A DNA stretch of 36,183 nucleotides, from IMG/VR virus record IMGVR_UViG_2737471857_000022. One strand, written 5' to 3'. This document shows, piece by piece, positions 7,149 through 20,567 of the stretch. Origin of the DNA: a virus (lineage: Duplodnaviria > Heunggongvirae > Uroviricota > Caudoviricetes). The notes under the pieces are model-generated. The model had not been told where the DNA came from, did not search any database, and saw nothing but the letters and a program-made list of their open reading frames with translations. Made by a program: the position numbers and the translations under genes. Position 1 is the stretch's first letter; the number at the start of each line of letters is the position of its first letter.

Positions 7149-7754
7149 TTATTTAGAGGACTTACATTTTATCGGAAAAAGTTCTTCATCGTCAATACTC
7201 ATAAAGAACTCTGCCTTAATCCCGTACTTCTTCAACCGTGAATAGTATGTACCCCGACTTATATCAACCTTGCGAAGCACTTCAAAGAACCCTTTAGGAT
7301 CGTTGTAATAGTGGCTATAACGCACGTTAGCGAGTTCAACGAATAGTTCCCTTGTATCACCATAGCCTTTCTTGAAAGCCTCGTTACGATAGCGTGTAAT
7401 TGCGTGATTCAATCTCTTCTGTTTCAACACTTCCCTGATCGGTGTCCACTGCAACCGATAGATAGGACCGTCATCAATGCGATAATAACGCTTGATATCA
7501 AAATCAAACCAATCTCGGACTCTCCGAAACTCTGTATGTGATGTTCTATGCTTCTTAAAGAAGTTGTGAACGTCTGTATAACCATTATCGCGGTAAAACT
7601 CTATTAAAATCTCTTTCGCTTCCTCACGACTAAAGCCAGATGTTGTGTAGTCGGTTTTTAAATGCTTATGCTTAACTGGCAAACGATATTCATGATCGGT
7701 ACAACAAGACAAGGCTAATTCTACTTCATCTCTTTGTTGCTGATTAATTAGCAT
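7149..7754 (-). CDS. hypothetical protein (201 aa) with C-terminal HTH related to the two small HTH proteins
   Basis: AAGGGGG SD 5 nt upstream; C-terminal [16 protein letters not shown] matches the HTH motif of 3296..3478 and 6886..7113. Confidence 0.6.
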
Positions 7755-7841: not shown

Positions 7842-9749
7842 ATGAAACTGATTTCTAATAAGGCCAAATTAAAAAAGATTCTCAGAAATGCAGCCAAATA
7901 TATTACGCCACCGCCTAAACTCCTCCCTTCTGAATGGTGCGAAGCGAATATGGTGCTGGTAGATGGTCCTCAAGCTGGGGATAAAGTTAAATTGCTGTCA
8001 TTCCAGAAAGGCATGATTGATGCTCCTTTCCTTGAGAACAAGAAAAAGTATGTTCTGATGACCAGTGCGCAGATCGGAAAGACTACCATCCTGAACGGTA
8101 TCCTGTTTAACCAGATGGCTAACGATCCATGCAATATGATTATCGGACAATCAACCGCTAAAGAAATGTCTCAATATCTCGCGGGTAAGATCCGACCGTC
8201 CATCGAAGCATGTGATGCATTAAAAGACGTGGTTACAGACAAGAATGATCGCAATGCGGTTAACAACAATAACCAGCTACAGCTAAAAACGAATCACTTC
8301 CTGTACATGGTATCGCTTACCAGTCCATCAACCCTACGTGGTAAGACCGCAAAGGTTGGATTGCTTGACGAAATCGATGCTGCTACAGCCTCAGAAGAAG
8401 GTGATCCGGTGGCGCTGGCTGCTAACCGTTTAACTACCTTTGGCGATGAAGGTCGATTAGTCGTATCCAGTACCCCGACCAGTAAGCTCGGAAGCATTAA
8501 CCAGCAATGGTTATCAAGTGATATGCGTATGTTTTTTGTTCCGTGTCCTCATTGCGGTAGACACCAGGTGATCGAGTGGGAAAACGTACAGTTTGAATGG
8601 CGTAACATCGATGGTAAGAATTTACCCGATCCTGATACCGCTCGTTATATTTGCCCCCATTGTAAGAACGCATGGACAGAAGGGGAACGAATCAGGGCAG
8701 TAGCGCAAGGCGAGTGGAGAGCAACCCGTGAAAGTGAAGTAGCAGGATTCTGGATTAGCCGTCTGTATTCACCTTTCAGCACGATCCGCGCTTGTGTGGT
8801 TGATTTTAGTCATGCGTGGCAATCCTTTGATTTACAATCATTTTATAACACCGTGTTAGGCAAGGTATACGACGATCAGGACACGGCAGTAGAAGCAAAT
8901 GAACTGGAACAACTCAAAACAGATGTTTCTATCGAGAATATCCCTGATGACGTGATTTTCTTGTGTTCAGGAATCGACCAGCAATTGGACCGCGCAGAAT
9001 CTACCATCTTAGGTGTAGCGAAAGATAAGGTTTACATTCTGGATCACCGCAGCTTTTACGATCATAACTGTGAACGATATGAATCACCTGTTTGGGATCG
9101 TCTGGTTAACTTCAAGAAAACCAAATTCTATAACGTTAATGGTGAACGTGTGCCAATGCTCGCCAGCTTCCTTGATACATCGAACGGTCGATTCACTCAA
9201 GCCGGATACCGTATTTGTGGCAAGTGGAAGAACCTACACGCGATCAAAGGTAGTTCATCCGGTAATGCTCCAGTGATTCCGGTTAAACCTACCCGCACAG
9301 GTGGTCATGAATTGCTTATGTTGGGTGTTAACGTTGGGAAATCTGCTGTTCGTGAAATGCTGGTTAGAAACCTGAAAGACAATCCTCACATCGGCTTAGA
9401 AATATCAGAAACCGTTCCTGATGATTATCTCGATCAGCTTTTGAGTGAATCCATCAAGCGTACTACTACTGGCGTGCGTTGGGTGAAAAATCCAGGTAGT
9501 ACCCGAAACGAGGCTCTCGACTGTCTGGTTTATAGCTATGCTGCTTCTCGCTACGTCCTTTCAAAAATGTCATGGGATAAACTCATTGCAATGAAAGACA
9601 GCTTAAACCGTGTTGTCGAAGAACCCGTAAAAGCTCCTGAAACGCAATCTGACGAGCAAATCGAAGAAACTAAGCCAATCACACGACCACAACGTCAAAA
9701 CATCGCCAGACGTCCAAATAGAGGCCGTAGTTGGGTAACATCGTTCTAA
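7842..9749 (+). CDS. terminase large subunit, lambda GpA-like (635 aa)
   Basis: P-loop TSAQIGKT near residue 75, two Cys-x2-Cys pairs ([16 protein letters not shown]); size and position ahead of portal. Confidence 0.85.
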
Positions 9750-9755
9750 TAACTC

Positions 9756-9773
9756 GCCGTCCTTCGGGGCGGC
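9756..9773 (+). other. stem-loop (GCCGTCC-TTCG-GGGCGGC) after the terminase gene, no clear T tract
   Basis: Inverted repeat with UUCG loop; possible RNA processing or attenuation site. Confidence 0.35.
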
Positions 9774-9821
9774 TTACTCCTAAATATTGTTAATCCAATA
9801 ACAATTAAATAAGGGGTAATT

Positions 9822-10316
9822 ATGAGTTTAGAACTAATTCCCTTAGTAATTCGTAAAGGCGAAAAAGTCACGCTGGCGAATGAAGAGGGTGTAACAATTC
9901 AGGTAGGAAATAGTAAAGGTATCATTTATCAGGTTGATGATTCTCCGGCTAATCACGAGATTAAAACCTTAGATTTTGCCGAAGGTAAATATACCATCGT
10001 AACAACTTTGGAAGATGAACTGGTATCAATGCAGGAATTAACTGTTTTGCCAGTATTCGCCAAACAATCCAAAAAAGAATATCTGCGGGAAACTATCGCC
10101 AAAATCGAGCAAGTTATTTTCGCCCGTTTATCTGGGGACGAAGCCGCATTATCTCAAATGACAGTGAAAGGGAATACTTTCGTTTATGAGTCATTAGGTG
10201 TTCTCCAGACTCTAAAAGTCGATTATGAACGTCAGTTATCAAAATTAATTCAAGCCGAACGACGTAAACAGGGAATTAGCCCGATTAAAAATATTAAAGT
10301 ACGTCTTACGCGATAA
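9822..10316 (+). CDS. hypothetical head-associated protein (164 aa) in the lambda W position
   Basis: ORF with TAAGGGGTAAT SD context between terminase and portal. Confidence 0.6.
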   Translation: MSLELIPLVIRKGEKVTLANEEGVTIQVGNSKGIIYQVDDSPANHEIKTLDFAEGKYTIVTTLEDELVSMQELTVLPVFAKQSKKEYLRETIAKIEQVIFARLSGDEAALSQMTVKGNTFVYESLGVLQTLKVDYERQLSKLIQAERRKQGISPIKNIKVRLTR

Positions 10317-10326
10317 GGGGTAAATC

Positions 10327-11835
10327 ATGTTTAATCTTTTTCGACGCAAAAAGGTGGTAGAAACTCCAGTTAAAACTAATCACCGCCAGCAACAAAAATT
10401 ATTCATCAACAAATCTGTAGAAAAATACCAGAATGACCTGAATAAACGAAGTTTAGGATTGGTGGGTGATCGCATTGATGGATCGCTTCAACAAGATACT
10501 ATCACAGGAACCTTCAATAAGGCTCTTAAATCGAACGCTAAACGCCTTTATGATCAGGGTCGTACTCTGGCCTTAAACACTGCTGTAGGCAGTCGCTACA
10601 CGCAATACATAACCGATATGGTGGTTGGTACTGGCCTAGATCCGAAACCATCTATGGTTAAATCAAACGGGAAACTTGATAGCGCACTGAATAAGCAGAT
10701 CGAGAATGCTTTCTGGAAGTGGGCGCAGAATGCTAAACGCTTCTCTCGTAATGGTCGCTTTAACTTCCGTGAATTGCTGGTAATGGCTGAACGTGAGCGC
10801 GTTATGGGTGGTGAGTGCTTCATCGTTTTAACTAAAGAAAACAATGAGTTAAACGTTTCTATCCTGTCTGCTGATAAGTGCGACTGGACGCTCAACCGTG
10901 AAGTTAGTAAAGACCGCGCGATATATCAAGGTGTGGAGTATGACGTAGAGACAATGCGCCCTGTTGCATACTGGTTTCGTAAAATCAACCTACTGACTCA
11001 GACCTACACTGGTGATAACTATCGCGTAGATGCTTCTCAAGTATGCCATTATTATCAACCACTTGCGGCTGAATCTCTTCGTGGTGTGACTGACTTCCTG
11101 CCAGTGATTAAGGACATTGCTCATCAAGACGCATTCCGCGAAGCAGTTTTAATACAGAAGAGAATCGCAGCTACAGCAATGGGTTTTATCGAGCGCCCGA
11201 AAGATTCCGGTGACGATTTTGATACTGGTGAAGATGAAGACCAATATCAAGCGCCGGACGTTATTCACGATTTCGCGCCCGGTACTATTCAGGAACTGCC
11301 GGAAGGGGCAACGATCAAGAGTATTCAGAGCAACCAAAGCGGCGACGACTTTAACAGCTTTAACAGTGGAATGTTCACGAGTATCGCAATGGGATTGGGC
11401 GTGTTCAATCAGGGCTTAACTGGTGATACTAGCCAGATCAACTACAGCGCTGCACGCTTTGGGGAACTACTTCAACGTAACCGCGTTAAAGCACTGCAAA
11501 ACAAATTAATTGAAACGGTGGTATTGCCAATTTTCGAAGCGTATCTGCGTCATTATTCCGCGCGTGGTGTTGTTCCGATTCGTATTACTGCAATCCCGCA
11601 TGTTATCGATAATACAACTATTATTAGACCACGTTTCGAGTCCGTTGACGTCAATAAAGATGTGAGCGCCGATATTGCTTTAATTGATAAAGGACTTAAA
11701 TCACGTACTGCTGTTATTCTTGAACGTGGTGATGATCCTGAAAAAGTATTCTCAGAGATTCAAGCCGAAAAAAGCGCACTAAATATTATCGTTAATGGCG
11801 AGAGCAAGGATAACCCTTCTCAAGCCGATCCCTAA
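10327..11835 (+). CDS. portal protein, lambda gpB-like (502 aa)
   Basis: Position after terminase, size, acidic Asp/Glu-rich segment; TAAGGGGTAAA SD. Confidence 0.8.
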   Translation: MFNLFRRKKVVETPVKTNHRQQQKLFINKSVEKYQNDLNKRSLGLVGDRIDGSLQQDTITGTFNKALKSNAKRLYDQGRTLALNTAVGSRYTQYITDMVVGTGLDPKPSMVKSNGKLDSALNKQIENAFWKWAQNAKRFSRNGRFNFRELLVMAERERVMGGECFIVLTKENNELNVSILSADKCDWTLNREVSKDRAIYQGVEYDVETMRPVAYWFRKINLLTQTYTGDNYRVDASQVCHYYQPLAAESLRGVTDFLPVIKDIAHQDAFREAVLIQKRIAATAMGFIERPKDSGDDFDTGEDEDQYQAPDVIHDFAPGTIQELPEGATIKSIQSNQSGDDFNSFNSGMFTSIAMGLGVFNQGLTGDTSQINYSAARFGELLQRNRVKALQNKLIETVVLPIFEAYLRHYSARGVVPIRITAIPHVIDNTTIIRPRFESVDVNKDVSADIALIDKGLKSRTAVILERGDDPEKVFSEIQAEKSALNIIVNGESKDNPSQADP

Positions 11836-11843
11836 TAACCAAC

Positions 11844-11860
11844 GGGGGCGCAATGCCCCC
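11844..11860 (+). other. stem-loop GGGGGC-GCAAT-GCCCCC after the portal gene
   Basis: Perfect 6-bp GC stem; no T tract. Confidence 0.35.
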
Positions 11861-11880
11861 AATTAATTAAAGGTGATTAA

Positions 11881-13884
11881 ATGCTTAAATTTCGCCGCGA
11901 TCTTAACGGTTACGGTGGAGTTATTAACGAAGGGCATAACGATCAATACGAATTTGAAATTGCTTTCTCAAGTACACAGCCTTATCAGCGCCAATTTTGG
12001 GATGAGCAAAATCAAGAAATGGTGGTATTAGATGAAATTCTGGTACATACACCGGAAGCGGTTGATCTGTCTCGTCTGAATAATAACGCTCCGTTGCTGT
12101 TCAATCATAATTTCGATAATCACATTGGTGTAGTCTGCGACGCTCGAATCGATGCGGATAACGTAGGCCGTGCTCTGGTTAAATTCTCTAAGCATGGCAC
12201 TTTGGCTAATGATATTCGCAATAAAGTCATTGAAGGTACGATGGAAAAAATTTCTGTCGGTTATGACATTAAAGAATATCACATCGACTACACCAAAGGG
12301 CAATTGATTGTTACTAAGTGGGCGCCTTTTGAAATTTCATTTGTGACGGTTCCCGCAGACGATTCGGTCGGTTTAAATCGCTCTCTAAATACTATCACAG
12401 TTAATTTGGGGGCTAAACGCGATATGACTAAAGAACAAATCGAAGAAATCAAAGAAGAACAAGAACCCGCTCAGGTTGAAGAAACTCCGGTAGAAGAAAA
12501 TAAAGAACCGAAAGTTGAAGAAACTCAAGAGCGCCAAGTTGAAGAGAATAAAGAAGATGAAAATCTCGAAGACGGAAAAGACGCTAAACATCCTGAAAGT
12601 GTTGATGATGATAGTTCAACTGTTCGGGAAACAGAAGAAGTAAAAGAAGAACGTGAAGCCGCTCCGGTTGAAGAAGAAAAAACCGAAGAAGTGGCTGAAC
12701 GTTCCGAAGAAGACGAAGAAGAAATCCGAGCAATCGCGCGGGAACTAAATATTGACGACGAAGAATTGAAACGCGCATTGGCAATTAAAGACATGACGCC
12801 GGAAGCATTCCGCACTAAGGCACTAAATAATCTCGTCAATGCTCAACGTAATAACGAACAAATTAAGGACTCTAAAATGGAAAAAACTTTTGACCTGAAC
12901 AACGTAATTCGCTCTCTGGTAGATGGTGAAGCTCTGGGTGCTAACGAAGCCGAGTTTTCTGCAATGGCTGCTACTGCAACTATGCAGCGTGGTCGTGCTG
13001 CTCGCGGTGGCTCTGTATTCGTTCCGACTGCTGCTATGCGTGCTGCTGCTGATGGTAACACCAAAGCTACTCTGACCGCTGTAACCGACGAAAAACTGCT
13101 GAATGATTCCTATGTAGCGATGCTGTTGCCGGAATCCGTTCTGGGTCGTCTTGGTGTGAAAGTCCTGTCTGGTCTGACTTCGCCGACCGCTATTCCTAAA
13201 ATGACCGCTTCCAGCGTTGAATCTTTCGGCTTCGTTGATGAAAACGGTGCTGCGCCGGAAGGTAAAGCTGAATTTGCAAACGTGAAAATGGCTCCTAAGA
13301 CGTTTGCTGGTGGGAATCCGATCAGCAGAGCTAGCCTCAAGACCGTACCCGGCATCGCTACCCTGATCACTGATCACATTAACCAGGCTGTTCGCATCAA
13401 ACTGGAACAACTGATTCTGTCCGACAAAGAAAATGCTCGTGGTCCGGCTGGTGTGATTAAACAACTGGTAGATGCTGGTCGCGTAGAGAAGAAAGCTGCT
13501 TTCTCTTATAAAGACTTCCTGAAAGAAATTGCTAAACTGACCGACGCTGGCGTTCCTGCTCAGGCGATCAAGTTTGCAATGAGCGGTGCAACTGCTGCTG
13601 AACTGGAATCTACCCTGAAAGATAACGGTGTTTCCGGTTATATCATCGAAAACGGTAAACTGGCTGGTTACGACGTAGTTACTTCTGGTGTTATTCCGGT
13701 AGACCACATCGTTCTGGGATCGTTCGACGCTATTACCATCGGTGAATGGGGTGGTCTGGAACTTGACATTGATGACACTACCTACCGCGCACAGTCTGCT
13801 ATCGTTCCGCGTATCTGGGTAGATCTGGATTACGTTGTAACCCAGCCGGAAGCGCTGAAAGTTCTTCACATCTCCGCTGAATGA
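11881..13884 (+). CDS. single polypeptide fusing prohead protease (HK97 gp4-like), acidic scaffold/delta linker and HK97-fold major capsid protein (667 aa)
   Basis: N-terminal 170 aa carry protease-like motifs (LLFNHNFDNHIG, ISVGYDIKEY, EISFVTVPADD). Residues about 180-300 are Glu/Lys-rich low complexity. The C-terminal 340 aa are capsid-like. Confidence 0.8.
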   Translation: MLKFRRDLNGYGGVINEGHNDQYEFEIAFSSTQPYQRQFWDEQNQEMVVLDEILVHTPEAVDLSRLNNNAPLLFNHNFDNHIGVVCDARIDADNVGRALVKFSKHGTLANDIRNKVIEGTMEKISVGYDIKEYHIDYTKGQLIVTKWAPFEISFVTVPADDSVGLNRSLNTITVNLGAKRDMTKEQIEEIKEEQEPAQVEETPVEENKEPKVEETQERQVEENKEDENLEDGKDAKHPESVDDDSSTVRETEEVKEEREAAPVEEEKTEEVAERSEEDEEEIRAIARELNIDDEELKRALAIKDMTPEAFRTKALNNLVNAQRNNEQIKDSKMEKTFDLNNVIRSLVDGEALGANEAEFSAMAATATMQRGRAARGGSVFVPTAAMRAAADGNTKATLTAVTDEKLLNDSYVAMLLPESVLGRLGVKVLSGLTSPTAIPKMTASSVESFGFVDENGAAPEGKAEFANVKMAPKTFAGGNPISRASLKTVPGIATLITDHINQAVRIKLEQLILSDKENARGPAGVIKQLVDAGRVEKKAAFSYKDFLKEIAKLTDAGVPAQAIKFAMSGATAAELESTLKDNGVSGYIIENGKLAGYDVVTSGVIPVDHIVLGSFDAITIGEWGGLELDIDDTTYRAQSAIVPRIWVDLDYVVTQPEALKVLHISAE

Positions 13885-13905
13885 ACTCCTGTAGAACCAT
13901 CTGAA

Positions 13906-13927
13906 CCTTCCCCCAAATCGGGGGAAG
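13906..13927 (+). other. perfect hairpin CTTCCCCC-AAAT-CGGGGGAAG, 22 nt after the capsid TGA stop
   Basis: 8-bp stem; lies inside an in-frame stop-free stretch following the capsid stop codon. Confidence 0.45.
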
Positions 13928-14018
13928 AAAATCTGATTCCTAAACCGGAAGAAGAATCCCAGACGGTTACGGCGAAAGCCACAGTTAAAAAACAGCGTAA
14001 AACTAAAGAATAATAATT

Positions 14019-14046
14019 AGCCCTGCCTAACGGTGGGGCTTTTTTG
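14019..14046 (+). terminator. terminator-like hairpin plus T6 after the capsid gene
   Basis: AGCCC...GGGGCT followed by TTTTTTG. Confidence 0.5.
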
Positions 14047-14075
14047 TATGTAAATACTCCATAAAGGGGGTAACT

Positions 14076-14366
14076 ATGTTCAAATTATCAGAATCACAAT
14101 TATCAAGAATGTTTAAGAGTGCTCCTGTATTTTCGGTGGAAGGTGGTAAATCAATTCGTGCTTATCATGAAATTACTACTACCGACGAACAAGGGGTAAT
14201 GACAGAAACAGAATTTCTATTTTGTCGTGAGGGAGACTTAAAGCAAGGTGATATTGTCATTGTAGAAAATCAGCGTTTCAAAGTTCAATACGTTAAGCGC
14301 AATGGTGACAATACTTGTGATTGCTTTATCACTTTAGCAGGGGGTACACATGCTCGCTACCGTTAA
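14076..14366 (+). CDS. head-tail joining protein, lambda FII-like (96 aa)
   Basis: C-terminal LKQGDIVIVENQRFKVQYVKRNGDNTCDCFITLAG resembles lambda FII (LRRGDTLTIGEENFWVDRVSPDDGGSCHLWLG, recalled). Confidence 0.55.
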   Translation: MFKLSESQLSRMFKSAPVFSVEGGKSIRAYHEITTTDEQGVMTETEFLFCREGDLKQGDIVIVENQRFKVQYVKRNGDNTCDCFITLAGGTHARYR

Positions 14367-14772
14367 TAATATGCCGAGACTGAAAATCAAACGCGCCTTG
14401 CAAGATATTATCGAACAAGATTTAGGTCTGGCTTTAAACGTAGAACAAACTCAGCAAGGCTTTAGTGATGACGTGGTTTGTTGGATTACTGGCATGAATG
14501 AAACTTATACGCGTGTTCGTGGTGGTAATGCAATGCAAGCTGAATGCGTTATCGAAATGCAGTTATATTCTCAGATTCATGAAACGAAAATTCATGAGGG
14601 TATTTGCCAGATAATCCAGATTCAGCCAGATAACCCACGATTTAAAGATTTGGGCTTCTCTATTTCAGATATCACTCCAGTAGCTTCTAATACCGATTAT
14701 GACGATGATTCTAGTGATGGGGGTATCGTTGGGACACTTAGCCTTAAATTTTCTTATCTAGCGCGTTTTTAA
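14350..14772 (+). CDS. tail terminator, lambda gpU-like (140 aa)
   Basis: GGGGG SD; DVVCWITGMNETYT...QAECVIEMQL and C-terminal DYDDDSSDG resemble gpU (recalled). Confidence 0.5.
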   Translation: MLATVNNMPRLKIKRALQDIIEQDLGLALNVEQTQQGFSDDVVCWITGMNETYTRVRGGNAMQAECVIEMQLYSQIHETKIHEGICQIIQIQPDNPRFKDLGFSISDITPVASNTDYDDDSSDGGIVGTLSLKFSYLARF

Positions 14773-14781
14773 GGGGTAATA

Positions 14782-15615
14782 ATGAATATTACACAAGATA
14801 ACTTAGACATTTTCACGGGGTCGCATGTTGAAGTCTCCGTGTCTACTATGGTGGATAACCAGCCGGACTTTTTCGATCCTGCATTTAGTCCTATCGAGAA
14901 CATCGCAGCATTCCCGACGATAACCGAATCCACAGAGATCCAGACGTTAGAAGAGTATGATCAGGACGCTACTGGTAAACTTGCTGGCTATCGTAAACTT
15001 GAATCAACTACGTTAGTAGTAAACCGTGTTCTGGATGACGAACATCAAGACATGTTGATGAAAGCGGTGAATGATAAAACTCCTTTACGCTTTCGTATGT
15101 TCTATGTTGTGAACTCTGGTTACAGTGCTGCTAACACAGGTTACTACGTCATTTTTGACGCTTATGTCTCGTCACATAAAACAAAATCCGGTGATAACAA
15201 AGTTACTACAATCGAGTTTAAATTAGAACCTGATGGCGGGATTCTAGATCGCGGTATTGCTACCGAAGGCCGGATCTTACGTCAGGGTGATTTTGGTTTG
15301 GGTGCTGGTGTAAATCCATTCACGGGTCCGATTGATAGCGAAGCATTAGCCGGAAACCGTTTCGTAACCTATCAGGGATCGAGCGCATCTAACCCATTTA
15401 GTGCTGATACTTCACTAATTCACGTTCAACCTAATGAAGATGGTGGATGGCAATTAACTTGCACCGCTTCTGGTGCACCACGTTTACGAGTTCGCACAGT
15501 CCAGAAAGACGGTAATTCTGGATGGGTGAAATTGTATTCCACAGAAGAAAAACCGACACCAGCCGAGATTGAAGCCGTTTCTATCCATGACCGGATCGAT
15601 TTCGGGGAATACTGA
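14782..15615 (+). CDS. tail-tube paralogue with about 110 aa C-terminal extension (277 aa); candidate fibre-attachment collar/ring protein
   Basis: N-terminal 165 aa align with CDS 20097..20567 (DIFTGS/DIFSGG, IAAFP/CAAFP, KLAGY.../KLVGR...). C-terminus has KPTPAEIEAVS, also found in the fibre. Confidence 0.6.
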   Translation: MNITQDNLDIFTGSHVEVSVSTMVDNQPDFFDPAFSPIENIAAFPTITESTEIQTLEEYDQDATGKLAGYRKLESTTLVVNRVLDDEHQDMLMKAVNDKTPLRFRMFYVVNSGYSAANTGYYVIFDAYVSSHKTKSGDNKVTTIEFKLEPDGGILDRGIATEGRILRQGDFGLGAGVNPFTGPIDSEALAGNRFVTYQGSSASNPFSADTSLIHVQPNEDGGWQLTCTASGAPRLRVRTVQKDGNSGWVKLYSTEEKPTPAEIEAVSIHDRIDFGEY

Positions 15616-15640
15616 TTGCTTCTCTAAATAAAACATGACG

Positions 15641-15672
15641 GGGAGGTTAACGCCTCCCTTATTCCTGTTTTA
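15641..15672 (+). terminator. rho-independent terminator (GGGAGG-TTAACG-CCTCCC plus T-rich tract)
   Basis: Perfect 6-bp stem followed by TTATTCCTGTTTT. Confidence 0.55.
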
Positions 15673-15686
15673 TGTGAGGTGATTAG

Positions 15687-18600
15687 ATGCAATCAATCCA
15701 ATTTAAACGAACTAATGTTTCTGGCAAAAAACCAACGCCGGAACAATTACAGGTCGGTGAGGTAGCAATCAACCTTAAAGACCATGTTATTTTTACCAAA
15801 GACCGAGATCATGAAGTAGTTCAAATCTCTGTTTCTCCTGAAACTCACGCGGCACTAGAATCTAAAGTTGATGCTAACAAACAAGAACTAGATAGCACAA
15901 TTGCAGTAAATGACCGCAATATTCACGCTAAAGTAGATGAAATTAAACAAACTACTGATGCAACCATCGCAGCAAATCACGCAGAAATTAACAATAAAGT
16001 TGATGTAATTAAACGCGAAACCGACGCGACAATCGAGGCCAATAAAAATAAAGCTGCTTCCGACCTTGCTGGTGTTAAAGCTGAATTGTCGGATACCATC
16101 AACGCTAATAAAAATGCGGCTGCTGTAGCAACTCAGGAACTGGACACCCGCATCAATAAAAAAGTTGATGATATTAAATCCCGCACCGATGCAACCATCG
16201 CAAGCAATGACAAAGCAATCAATGACAAGGTTGATTTGATTAAGGCAGAAACTGACCGCACTATCGCAGCAAATAAAGTCTATGCGGAAAATCAGTTAAC
16301 TGACACCTACAATAACCTTACTGGTGTGATTGCAGCCAATAAGCAAGAGGCAGCGGATAACGTCGCAGCATTAACCCGTGATGTTGAAGCCAAAAATACA
16401 GCAATTCATAGCAAAATTGACAACAACAAGGTTTACACTGATTCTGAATTGGCACGCTTAGAAAGCCGTATTGATGCAGCCGATGGATCTGCTGATGGCA
16501 AGTACATCAAAAAACACGTAAACACTTATACTGATGGTTATTTGCTGTCTAAGACCGCAAACTATTTTGATGATCCAAGTGCGCGTAATCTTGATTACTT
16601 TGGTGCATTCCGTATGAATGACCTAGCGGGTCATATTGCTTTAGCGTTACATGTTCCGCATCCATCCGGCGTTAATCATGCTCGTGGTTTTGAGTTCACT
16701 TATGGGTCTAATCCACATGCTACGGTAAGAACATACGGCTATGATGAATTGGGTCATTTGGCATATTCTCACCGCATGTATCATGAAGGTGATAAACCTA
16801 CTCCGGCTGAAATTGGCGCATATTCGAAAGCAGAAATTGACCGCCTGTTCCAGAAGACGCTTAATTTTGGTATCGAGGGCGGTTGGTTTAAACTAGGCAC
16901 TTTGACAATGCCACAGCAACACGGTCGCACCGCTAAGATCCGTTTGGTTGGTGGTAACGGTTATAACGTCGGGATGAATGGACAAGCCAATATTATCGAA
17001 TTGGTGATTCGATGCGGCAACAATAGCCCGAAAGGTGTTGTATTCAATGCTTATTATAGCATCTGGTATCACGAACAACATTTTTGTGCAATTCCTACCG
17101 ATGGTGATAATTACGATCTTTACGCTTACTATGGTGCACATACAGGATTTGTTTTAGCAGAATATCAAGTTTCTTCCGGTGGTGTTTCTTTAAACCTGTT
17201 GGATACTCCTGAATACCTGGGCGGTGAAAAACCTGTTGCAGATGAAATTTTTGATGCTCTTAACATTTCATCGTTCAATAACTTTAGCAACCGTGGAACG
17301 TTAAATTTTGGCGGAAACCATCAAGGCCAATATGATATTGAGCATTTGAACGAACAACAAACAAATGCTAAAAAGATGTTGCGTCGCTTCCGTAGTTCTG
17401 CTCCTGCCACTATCTGGCATGAAACTGTTGATGATAACGCATATCGTCTTGCTACTGGATACGAAGATACAAATCAGGAATTATTACTGACAGCAACAAC
17501 CGGATTACATATCAAGAAATTAACATTGGATGGCGGTGTTGGTGGAAATTCTGGTATTGATATTCGTCGAGGACCAAATGAAGCAAGCCATTTTAATTTC
17601 ATGGATTATCGCACTGGTCAAGATGTTCGTAATGGCTGGTTTGGTTTTGGTGACGGTCAGACGAAAGATTTTATTTGGTGGAACGATAACGGTCAAAACT
17701 CAATCAACCTGATCGAAAACGGTGAATTGCATATTACTGGTGGTAAAGGCCAGAAAATTGTAATGAATAGCGAAGTTGCATTGTCTGAAAATGCTCGTTT
17801 GGCTGTCAAAGGCGGTAACTATGGTTTGATTTTACGCAATGATGGTTCTGGTTTCCATATTCTTACTACCAATTTAAAAGATTCTTTTGGTAGTTGGAAT
17901 AATCGCAGACCATTCAGTTATGATTTTGCGGACGGTGGATTATATTTAGGTGGTACTGAAACCGCTCGGTGTTTACATCTGGGGATTGATGGTAGCACTC
18001 GTCTTGAAGACAACCTGTTCTTTAAAGCTGGTTCTCGTCAATCTATGGACTATATGGAACTCGTCCATTGGGGGGCAAGCAATACAGGTCGAAATAACGT
18101 TTTAAGTCTTCGTGACTCAAAAGGATTTTTCGCAGAATTTGAAAGATTGGGTGATAATACCATTAAAAACTCCTTCTTTGGTAAACTTAAAATTAATCGC
18201 GGATCTGATGCAATTATCATGAATGCCGAAAGTGGTGATTCTTCTGTATATTTGTTGGGTACGTGTGCTGATAACAATAATTGGTATATCGGTAAAGGCG
18301 GCGCTGATAATGGATTGGCGTTCTATAGTTATGCTACTAATGCTGCTGTAAACATTACAAACGCGGGGGATATCGCTCTAAGTCCAAAAGGCATCGAAAT
18401 GACTCATGTCAATAACGTTCGATTCTATGTTCATGGTGAACGTTGGACTGCTAGCCAATCTGGAGGTTGGAACGACCAGTGGGGATTAGAAGCGCCGATA
18501 TTTGTCGATCATGGTTATGTTTCACCGGACTGTTATTACCCAATTATTAAAGGAAGAAGTTTAATCACCAATCAAGGGTATACAACTGCCGTCGATTTTG

Positions 18601-19097
18601 GTCTGCGTCGTGTTCCTAATGCATGGGGACAAGCAATTATTCGCGTTGGATCTGCGGAGGCATCGCCAGCGGCTGGTCATCCTCAAGCTGTATTCGAGTT
18701 CCATCATGATGGTACTTTTTACTGTCCTGGTAATGGTAACTTTAACGATGTTTATATTCGTTCCGATCGTCGTCTGAAAATTAATGTTGAAGATTACGAA
18801 GAAAATGCGGTGGATAAGGTAAATAAACTCAAAGTTAAAACCTACGATAAAGTTAAATCTCTTAATGACCGAGAAGTTATAGGTCATGAGATTGGTATTA
18901 TCGCACAGGATTTACAAGAGGTATTACCGGAAGCTGTTAAAACCGCAAAAATTGGTGGTTTTGATAACCCAGAAGAAATTTTAACAATTTCAAACTCCGC
19001 AGTGAACGCGCTTTTAATTAAAGCGGTCCAAGAAATGAGCGAAGAAAATAAACTTCTTCGTGAACGTCTTGCTGCAATTGAAGCTAAATTAGGGTAA
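15687..19097 (+). CDS. side (L-shaped-type) tail fibre with C-terminal intramolecular chaperone domain, T5 pb1-like (1136 aa)
   Basis: Four about 22-aa repeats (xIxxKVDxIKxxTDATIxAN) at aa 77-200. C-terminal 110 aa (YIRS/DRRLK...GIIAQDLQEVLPEAVK...NSAVNALLIKAV) resemble the S74-type chaperone of T5 pb1 and endosialidases (recalled). Confidence 0.85.
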   Translation: MQSIQFKRTNVSGKKPTPEQLQVGEVAINLKDHVIFTKDRDHEVVQISVSPETHAALESKVDANKQELDSTIAVNDRNIHAKVDEIKQTTDATIAANHAEINNKVDVIKRETDATIEANKNKAASDLAGVKAELSDTINANKNAAAVATQELDTRINKKVDDIKSRTDATIASNDKAINDKVDLIKAETDRTIAANKVYAENQLTDTYNNLTGVIAANKQEAADNVAALTRDVEAKNTAIHSKIDNNKVYTDSELARLESRIDAADGSADGKYIKKHVNTYTDGYLLSKTANYFDDPSARNLDYFGAFRMNDLAGHIALALHVPHPSGVNHARGFEFTYGSNPHATVRTYGYDELGHLAYSHRMYHEGDKPTPAEIGAYSKAEIDRLFQKTLNFGIEGGWFKLGTLTMPQQHGRTAKIRLVGGNGYNVGMNGQANIIELVIRCGNNSPKGVVFNAYYSIWYHEQHFCAIPTDGDNYDLYAYYGAHTGFVLAEYQVSSGGVSLNLLDTPEYLGGEKPVADEIFDALNISSFNNFSNRGTLNFGGNHQGQYDIEHLNEQQTNAKKMLRRFRSSAPATIWHETVDDNAYRLATGYEDTNQELLLTATTGLHIKKLTLDGGVGGNSGIDIRRGPNEASHFNFMDYRTGQDVRNGWFGFGDGQTKDFIWWNDNGQNSINLIENGELHITGGKGQKIVMNSEVALSENARLAVKGGNYGLILRNDGSGFHILTTNLKDSFGSWNNRRPFSYDFADGGLYLGGTETARCLHLGIDGSTRLEDNLFFKAGSRQSMDYMELVHWGASNTGRNNVLSLRDSKGFFAEFERLGDNTIKNSFFGKLKINRGSDAIIMNAESGDSSVYLLGTCADNNNWYIGKGGADNGLAFYSYATNAAVNITNAGDIALSPKGIEMTHVNNVRFYVHGERWTASQSGGWNDQWGLEAPIFVDHGYVSPDCYYPIIKGRSLITNQGYTTAVDFGLRRVPNAWGQAIIRVGSAEASPAAGHPQAVFEFHHDGTFYCPGNGNFNDVYIRSDRRLKINVEDYEENAVDKVNKLKVKTYDKVKSLNDREVIGHEIGIIAQDLQEVLPEAVKTAKIGGFDNPEEILTISNSAVNALLIKAVQEMSEENKLLRERLAAIEAKLG

Positions 19098-20096: not shown

Positions 20097-20567
20097 ATGA
20101 CTACTAAATTTGATATTTTTTCTGGTGGCCTCGTTGGTCTGTTTCTGCATGAAGAAGTAACTAACACCGATCTTGACAGTGAAAGCTATCTGGAAATTCC
20201 AGAATGTGCGGCTTTCCCGGAAACTGGTGTAGAACGTTCTACTATCGATGTTCCTAACTTCGGTGGTCCGTATAACCGTAAGCTGGTTGGTCGTATGTCT
20301 GTACCGGATATCGAACTTTCGATCAACTACATGCCGGGTAACGAAGTACACGAAAAACTGATTAAAGCAACCGAAGACGGTAAGCGCGTACAGCTTAAAA
20401 TTGCTTACTACATCGACGCTACGAAAAAATCTGGTGTGCACATCGCTTATAACGGCTTCCTGTCTAAAACTACCATGACGGGCGGTGAAGATGCTGTAGT
20501 AGGTCGTTCTTTCACCTTTGTAGTAGATGGTGCTCCGGTTAAACAAGCTGTTTTCCAGAAAGTCTAA
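20097..20567 (+). CDS. major tail tube protein, lambda gpV N-domain-like (156 aa)
   Basis: ELSINYMPGNEVHEKLIKATEDG resembles gpV [23 protein letters not shown] (recalled). Sits directly ahead of the chaperone pair and tape measure; strong terminator downstream. Confidence 0.7.
   Translation: MTTKFDIFSGGLVGLFLHEEVTNTDLDSESYLEIPECAAFPETGVERSTIDVPNFGGPYNRKLVGRMSVPDIELSINYMPGNEVHEKLIKATEDGKRVQLKIAYYIDATKKSGVHIAYNGFLSKTTMTGGEDAVVGRSFTFVVDGAPVKQAVFQKV

Follow-up and report, generated by a model that had tools for sequence, protein, structure and literature searches.

Can a single polypeptide furnish a phage head with its protease, its scaffold and its shell? The question is raised by one gene (table 1) in a 36,183-nucleotide stretch of Caudoviricetes DNA, IMG/VR record IMGVR_UViG_2737471857_000022, the whole of which is called the window throughout. 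An earlier note, drawn up from the letters of the window alone, had read this gene as prohead protease, scaffold and capsid encoded in one open reading frame (ORF). We conclude that it encodes an ordinary protease/scaffold/capsid fusion polyprotein of an Escherichia coli prophage, one that would first assemble and then be cleaved; for this reading, mechanism included, we set the probability at about 0.9. The protein is an uncharacterized, ordinary member of a class of polyproteins that is already known.

How is the precursor put together? From its N terminus it runs through a prohead protease, an acidic spacer, a helical scaffold-like domain and an HK97-fold major capsid protein. Pfam Peptidase_S78 (PF04586) covers residues 40–162 (E = 1.5e-10; 41.9 bits against a gathering cutoff of 21) and Phage_capsid (PF05065) covers residues 409–663 (E = 3.1e-22; 79.7 bits against 24.2). 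PHROG 617 (‘major head protein’) spans nearly the entire chain, pairing residues 23–662 with profile positions 26–621 (596 of 626) at E = 3.4e-88, and phrog_4523 (‘major head and protease protein’) matches as well. The earlier note was therefore right to place protease and capsid in one 667-residue ORF, and its coordinates were exact. In its three segments the protease and the capsid also stand, but the layout does not: an AlphaFold2 (AF2) model (92-sequence alignment; mean predicted local distance difference test score, pLDDT, 82.4) has four parts, and the helical domain of residues 272–387 had been counted as capsid. A protein 100% identical to the fusion is present at NCBI, under the names ‘peptidase’ and ‘phage major capsid family protein’. 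Over 100 other E. coli and Shigella clusters share 96–98% identity with it, and Peptidase_S78 and Phage_capsid are precomputed together on all close relatives.

If the protease and capsid genes are separate in HK97, might their union here be an artefact, produced by a frameshift, an assembly error or the loss of a stop codon? In HK97 the two genes lie 2 nt apart, so that one mutation could fuse such a pair, and the window is a prophage, not an isolated phage. Yet the ORF is uninterrupted in all 120 of the E. coli and Shigella relatives among the matches listed, which come from independent assemblies and have lengths of 666–670 residues, and in 148 of the 150 best cluster representatives. The fused ORF is found, moreover, in the isolated, viable phages R4C, phiHAP-1, ep3 and RcCronus. 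A frameshift that splits the ORF, which the earlier note had named as fatal to its proposal, did not appear in any of these 120 relatives. The probability of an artefact seems to us negligible. In the other frames inside the gene the longest stop-free run is 50 codons.

Is the protease domain still an enzyme? In an alignment of 146 family representatives, drawn from clusters at 50% identity, no sequence departs from His76, Ser125 or Glu151; the motifs that surround them, LLFNH, ISVGY and EISFVTVPAD, are at least 90% conserved. His76 and Ser125 stand opposite His65 and Ser114 of HK97 gp4, the catalytic pair of that protease, so that the catalytic residues are intact, as the earlier note had supposed; Glu151 may be a third active-site residue. 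AF2 gives residues 21–168 as a confident, β-rich protease domain, and a fold search assigns it, again confidently, the fold of assemblin and of the T4 gp21 prohead protease. A sequence search of the Protein Data Bank (PDB) with the protease domain alone returned only chance-level matches (E > 1). TIGR01543, the HK97-family prohead protease equivalog, reaches 37.2 bits over residues 65–164, below its curated cutoff of 59; since Pfam S78 is passed, we regard the domain as a divergent member of S78.

This divergence might be taken to mean that the protease is a dead relic, the N-terminal 387 residues serving solely as a scaffold or δ domain that another protease removes, or that is not removed at all. 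Against this stand the invariance of the three residues in 146 diverse members, the conservation of the motifs and the confident assemblin/gp21-like fold. Among close relatives, too, the density of variable columns in the protease domain (0.18) is one of the two lowest, next to that of the capsid domain (0.17); the spacer and the helical domain have 0.30 and 0.32. Nor is another protease at hand: between the portal and the neck genes the ORF list and Pfam reveal no stand-alone protease, scaffold or decoration gene, an absence on which the earlier note had correctly insisted. A relic is, on this evidence, very unlikely.

Which part of the fusion would act as the scaffold? The earlier note had described a Glu/Lys-rich linker between protease and capsid. 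The linker is in fact acidic, with 38 Asp and Glu against 14 Lys and Arg, a net charge of −24 and a pI of 4.2. At pLDDT below 50 over residues 169–183 and 193–271, with one short predicted helix (184–193, about 55), it appears disordered. Over the 146 members its equivalent, measured on residues 168–270, ranges from 16 to 145 residues about a median of 49; the fusion has 103, only seven members have more, and composition varies across the family as well. The helical domain, by contrast, is kept in nearly all members at a median of about 107 residues. AF2 builds it from helices at 276–288, 293–301, 307–330, 339–348, 354–369 and 383–390, mostly at pLDDT 82–97, and Arg387, with which it ends, is conserved in 93% of the family. 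Because the helical domain is conserved and the spacer variable, the former, and not the acidic stretch, is the best scaffold candidate. By analogy it is probably the functional counterpart of the HK97 δ domain.

Might the spacer be more than a passive tether? Long and strongly acidic, it is the sole mildly distinctive trait of this protein. As a filler of the procapsid, a polyanionic spacer could exclude nucleic acid or set the internal volume and hence the size of the capsid; alternatively, once released, it could yield acidic peptides with a separate role, at some 415 copies per head, for instance by mimicking DNA and so interfering with host defence. We consider such additional roles unlikely. 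As to its origin, weak short tandem repeats are present at 12437–12555, and repeat expansion was discarded as an explanation, these arrays giving no clear sign of it.

Where does the mature capsid protein begin? The capsid domain is secure: it matches PDB entry 8GTA by sequence at E = 2.9e-23, Foldseek aligns it with the capsids of R4C, HK97, D3, a gene transfer agent (GTA), SaPI1 and actinophages at E = 1e-19 to 1e-10, and AF2 gives a confident HK97 fold from about residue 410. The layout of the 146 members is consistent, namely a protease of about 165 residues, a variable spacer, a helical domain of about 107 residues and a capsid domain of about 278. The closest named comparison is R4C vBDshSR4C_006 (MK882925.1, 5455–7344; 629 residues), which BLASTP aligns with residues 7–660 of the fusion (26% identity, E = 4e-45). 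The virion of R4C has been determined by cryo-electron microscopy at 3.6 Å as a T = 7 shell with 415 copies of the capsid gene product (PMC10276861). The chain deposited as 8GTA has 268 residues and maps to residues 362–629 of the 629. A virion model that holds the C-terminal part alone supports, by analogy, the removal of the N-terminal part. Its first residue corresponds to Leu398 of the fusion, with Arg387 lying 10 residues upstream of the Leu398-equivalent position, and the K103/S104 cut of HK97, moved by the hhalign offset, falls near residue 393. From these positions we infer that the maturation cut lies at about residues 385–400, most likely after Arg387. The boundary between δ domain and N-arm of HK97 gp5 was not transferred directly, the family profile being aligned by hhalign only from residue 449. 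A literature search for measured mature N-termini of fused capsid proteins yielded nothing specific.

Is the shell then cross-linked? The hhalign alignment with HK97 gp5 puts Ala458 opposite the cross-linking K169 and Ser639 opposite N356, at 17% identity and with hand-counted positions, so that the match is indicative; with these residues, chainmail of the HK97 type is not predicted. The missing cross-link residues, together with the lack of an adjacent decoration gene, tentatively suggest a capsid held by non-covalent contacts only. The R4C capsid has likewise been contrasted with the covalently cross-linked capsid of HK97 (PMC10276861).

How might such a precursor build a head? The uninterrupted frame indicates that the 73-kDa precursor would be translated as a single chain. 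Its C-terminal HK97-fold domain would build a procapsid, probably of T = 7 geometry, on the lambda-family portal; the helical domain would be the internal scaffold, and the protease, held by the flexible acidic spacer, would be tethered inside and face inward. Confinement would bring the protease domains together and activate them, His76 and Ser125, and possibly Glu151, forming the active site. The proteases would then cut near Arg387, within about residues 385–400, and degrade the spacer, the scaffold and themselves. Once the fragments had left, the remaining capsid protein (roughly residues 388–667, about 29 kDa) would expand with DNA packaging, an outcome for which the R4C virion offers support. 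The earlier note held that the protease would have to excise itself and the scaffold in cis. This does not follow: one procapsid would confine some 415 protease domains, which could at least as plausibly cleave in trans. The HK97 protease is present in sub-stoichiometric amounts and relies on its own C-terminal region for targeting into the prohead. Covalent tethering would make the separate targeting step of a free protease unnecessary.

Must every capsid subunit carry a protease? An internal start at Met333, or a programmed frameshift, might supply most subunits without one and leave the protease sub-stoichiometric, as in HK97 and as with C and Nu3 of lambda. A 1:1 ratio of protease to capsid would pack the interior of the procapsid tightly, which speaks for such a device, and candidates for it exist: an in-frame ATG at Met333 with a weak AAGG 8 nt upstream, and two X XXY YYZ heptamers in frame where the protease domain ends (codons 164 and 175). 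However, the column of Met333 is Glu in 88 of 146 members and the Shine–Dalgarno-like match is only 4 nt long, so that an internal start was rejected as a family feature. By chance, 667 codons would contain about 2.6 such heptamers against the two found, and slippage by −1 at either would only add free protease, leaving the number of protease-bearing capsid chains as it was; with a chance-level count and no stoichiometric benefit, the programmed frameshift was likewise set aside. No conserved feature of the family points to two products. We therefore judge it improbable that most subunits escape the fusion, and retain the precursor in which each capsid domain carries its own protease and scaffold.

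Several observations nevertheless weigh against this assembly-and-cleavage model. The alignment by hhalign with the single sequence of HK97 gp4 has a probability of only 8%; because it is so low, the residue correspondence rests on motif identity and invariance. The helical domain has no sequence similarity to the HK97 δ domain that hhalign could detect, its alignment to gp5 beginning at residue 449. The 8GTA chain begins where the Pfam capsid domain of R4C does (residue 362), so that its first residue may reflect model building and not the true mature N terminus. The paper on the R4C structure is silent on processing or a protease, the words ‘protease’, ‘cleav’ and ‘fusion’ being absent from it (PMC10276861); it handles the homologue as a capsid protein of 268 residues, the 361-residue N-terminal part goes unmentioned, and its processing has apparently passed without remark. 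Finally, 415 copies of the 43.9-kDa N-terminal part amount to 18.2 MDa, or about 50–77% of a cavity whose inner radius, assumed from HK97-sized proheads, is 190–220 Å. Such packing is tight, yet the family has many members and R4C is a viable phage. How a T = 7 procapsid takes up some 18 MDa of cargo at 1:1 stoichiometry, and how tethered proteases become active in it, is a small question amenable to testing.

How widespread is the arrangement? At E ≤ 1e-30 there are at least 350 protein clusters at 50% identity. Among the best 150 representatives, 148 are proteins of 534–893 residues, and nearly all share the fusion architecture. One degenerate pattern scan detected relatives encoded on at least 578 IMG/VR contigs. 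The fusion protein is matched in 91 of 50,697 phage records, which agrees with the opinion of the earlier note that only a minority of phages have such fusions. PHROGs, NCBIfam and papers on actinobacteriophages already list the architecture; ‘Major capsid and protease fusion protein’ serves as a product name in phage records and in several genome announcements. The literature describes protease–(scaffold)–capsid fusion genes (PMC5513430, PMC7302621) and also an analogous ClpP–gpT fusion in Paracoccus prophages (PMC6536676). The NCBIfam model NF045541, ‘prohead protease/major capsid protein fusion protein’ (scaf_prot_MCP2), reaches 133.4 bits against a cutoff of 525, over residues 22–344 only (profile positions 5–281 of 634); with a score so far below the cutoff, the present protein belongs to a different lineage with the same architecture.

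Is a fusion out of place in a head module ordered like that of lambda? The earlier note thought it atypical. Among 80 retrieved IMG/VR loci, which are the closest relatives and so speak for the lineage and not for all fusions, 67 have 1.5 kb or more of sequence in front of the fusion gene, and in 66 of these a homologue of a lambda-family portal precedes it on the same strand; a homologue of the gpA-type terminase is present in 40 of the 42 with at least 4.2 kb. By Pfam, phiHAP-1, ep3, RcCronus and R4C also combine gpA-type terminase, lambda-family portal and fusion. Within this lineage the context is the rule, not an exception. The window shares with lambda the gpA ATPase and nuclease terminase, the Phage_portal_2 portal and the gene order; unlike lambda, it has no S49 gpC protease, no nested Nu3, no gpD and no capsid of the gpE family, none of which has a Pfam match in the ORFs of 7842–15615. 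A single S78–capsid fusion fills the positions past the portal.

Comparison with the named systems separates kinship from analogy. R4C shares with the present protein the His, SVGY and EISFV.IPAD motifs, the spacer, the helical domain and the HK97 fold, in the same order. Both R4C and RcCronus (gp07) have, like the window, a gpA terminase, a head–tail joining gene, a lambda-family portal and the fusion gene. On the other hand, the spacer of R4C is shorter and rich in Pro, Ala and Thr, not acidic, and its host is an alphaproteobacterium; in R4C and RcCronus, moreover, Pfam S78 went undetected at E limits of 0.01 and 0.001, although the motifs align. The PHROG 617 family takes in Halomonas phiHAP-1 (ORF5), Vibrio VP882, Escherichia ep3 (gp31) and ECO1230-10, Xanthomonas FoX and Synechococcus S-CBS1/3. 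Theirs, too, are full-length S78 and Phage_capsid fusions of about 600–680 residues, directly after a lambda-family portal; they differ in that identity is only 26–29% and that several are myoviruses or linear-plasmid prophages. HK97 has the same protease family, catalytic residues and capsid fold, and in its gp5 a scaffold-like N-terminal region covalently joined to the capsid domain until the protease removes it, as we propose here. It departs from the window in its two genes (gp4 and gp5) and in its types of terminase and portal. Actinobacteriophages with ‘major capsid and protease fusion’ genes (Arthrobacter AM/AU/AN, Microbacterium EE/EL and Rhodococcus RRH1), likened to ours by description only, include many with very small genomes of 15–17 kb. 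The assemblin–scaffold polyprotein of herpesviruses (UL26/UL80 type) is an analogy of mechanism and fold and not a member of the family: there the capsid protein has a separate gene, the catalytic triad is Ser-His-His, and sequence similarity is undetectable.

What is gained by identifying the protein? There is little new biology in it, and the value lies in annotation and in small leads. The RefSeq names ‘phage major capsid protein’ and ‘peptidase’ hide the fact that one gene supplies protease and scaffold as well. A module in which a single gene provides capsid, scaffold and protease is compact and might be useful for the engineering of protein cages, and with E. coli as its host this member is easily tested.

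In what kind of element does the gene reside? The window is an E. coli prophage. At 80–95% nucleotide identity its head module recurs in 55 of 5,426 complete E. coli genomes, chromosomal every time; no near-identical isolated phage is present among the 50,697 phage records.

A related prophage, in E. coli PK8568 (NZ_CP080126.1; 11826–12334, 37394–38164, 44918–46597), adjoins a frameshifted hicA-like gene and a truncated hicB and ends with a gene of the large serine-recombinase family, which suggests integration into the hicAB locus. It has a NUMOD3-domain gene within its tail module; RefSeq calls its homologue of the fusion ‘phage major capsid protein’. Among phage records the closest homologue, at 43% identity, is a 666-residue ‘hypothetical protein’ of Escherichia phage DCP80 (PQ671644.1, 1–13786), in which terminase, a small ORF, an ORF of about 510 residues and the fusion gene follow one another as in the window. 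This module stands at the left end of a 141-kb Straboviridae/Tevenvirinae record, where it is unexpected in a T4-like genome, and the record may be a chimeric assembly.

Table 1. Positions in the window of the fusion gene, its parts and its neighbours (aa, amino-acid residues of the precursor).
Feature	Position	Strand	Remarks
gpA-type large terminase	7842..9749	+	Pfam GpA_ATPase, GpA_nuclease
164-aa ORF	9822..10316	+	weak match to a head–tail joining family (phrog_5774)
lambda-family portal	10327..11835	+	directly upstream of the fusion gene; Pfam Phage_portal_2, E 2.4e-65
GC-rich hairpin GGGGGC GCAAT GCCCCC, without T run	11843-11861	+	between portal stop and fusion start; z −1.64
whole fused gene, 667-aa (73.4 kDa) precursor	11881..13884	+	ATG start; TGA stop at 13882-13884
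prohead serine protease domain, Peptidase_S78 / HK97 gp4 family (aa 21–168)	11941..12384	+	
His76 codon, predicted catalytic histidine	12106..12108	+	invariant, 146/146; opposite HK97 gp4 His65 (hhalign)
Ser125 codon, predicted catalytic serine	12253..12255	+	motif ISVGY; invariant, 146/146; opposite HK97 gp4 Ser114 (MSVGF)
Glu151 codon, invariant acidic residue	12331..12333	+	motif EISFVTVPAD; 146/146; opposite HK97 gp4 Glu141
disordered acidic spacer (aa 169–271)	12385..12693	+	AF2 pLDDT mostly <50; composition
conserved helical domain (aa 272–387)	12694..13041	+	ends at Arg387; family alignment, AF2
HK97-fold major capsid domain (about aa 388–667, about 29.5 kDa), predicted mature virion protein	13042..13881	+	
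terminator-like hairpin, 9-bp stem and run of six T (UUUUUUGU)	14019..14046	+	135 nt past the stop

How is the fusion gene set among its neighbours? Its flanks agree with the description in the earlier note. Neither the 45-nt gap before it nor the 191-nt gap after it holds a plus-strand ORF of 20 residues or more, and small neck-type ORFs follow, the first at 14076 (+). The 164-aa ORF upstream of the portal occupies the position of the gene annotated as ‘head–tail joining’ in RcCronus and R4C. Past the fusion gene, the terminator-like hairpin folds at −17.2 kcal/mol (z = −3.34), with none of 200 shuffles as stable; the HK97 record has a putative terminator annotated just after gp5, in the same relative place. 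Such a hairpin fits a high expression of the capsid gene relative to the genes downstream. The GC-rich hairpin ahead of the fusion gene closely precedes the ribosome-binding site of that gene, and its fold is modestly better than those of shuffles. It may be an element of mRNA processing or stability, or nothing.

Two further features of the surrounding module deserve mention. Directly upstream of the large terminase (7842) and on the opposite strand lies a 201-aa ORF (7149–7754, −); there is no same-strand small-terminase gene directly upstream, unlike in phiHAP-1, ep3 and R4C, and the small subunit may be encoded elsewhere or be unrecognized. Downstream, at 14782–19097 (+), a 277-aa ORF whose N-terminal half matches the ‘major tail protein’ phrog_158 (E = 1.9e-10) is followed by a 1136-aa tail-fibre-like ORF, whose RefSeq homologue is a ‘tail fiber domain-containing protein’. 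The two ORFs separate the head genes from the annotated tail-tube gene (20097..20567), where a fibre gene is not usually placed; their products could be a fibre of the head or neck, or a second tube-like protein. Nearby, ARAGORN called a 91-nt tRNA-Glu (TTC) at 14537–14627 (−), inside the neck-gene ORF 14350..14772 (+); with no Rfam tRNA there at the gathering threshold, we set it aside as probably a false positive.

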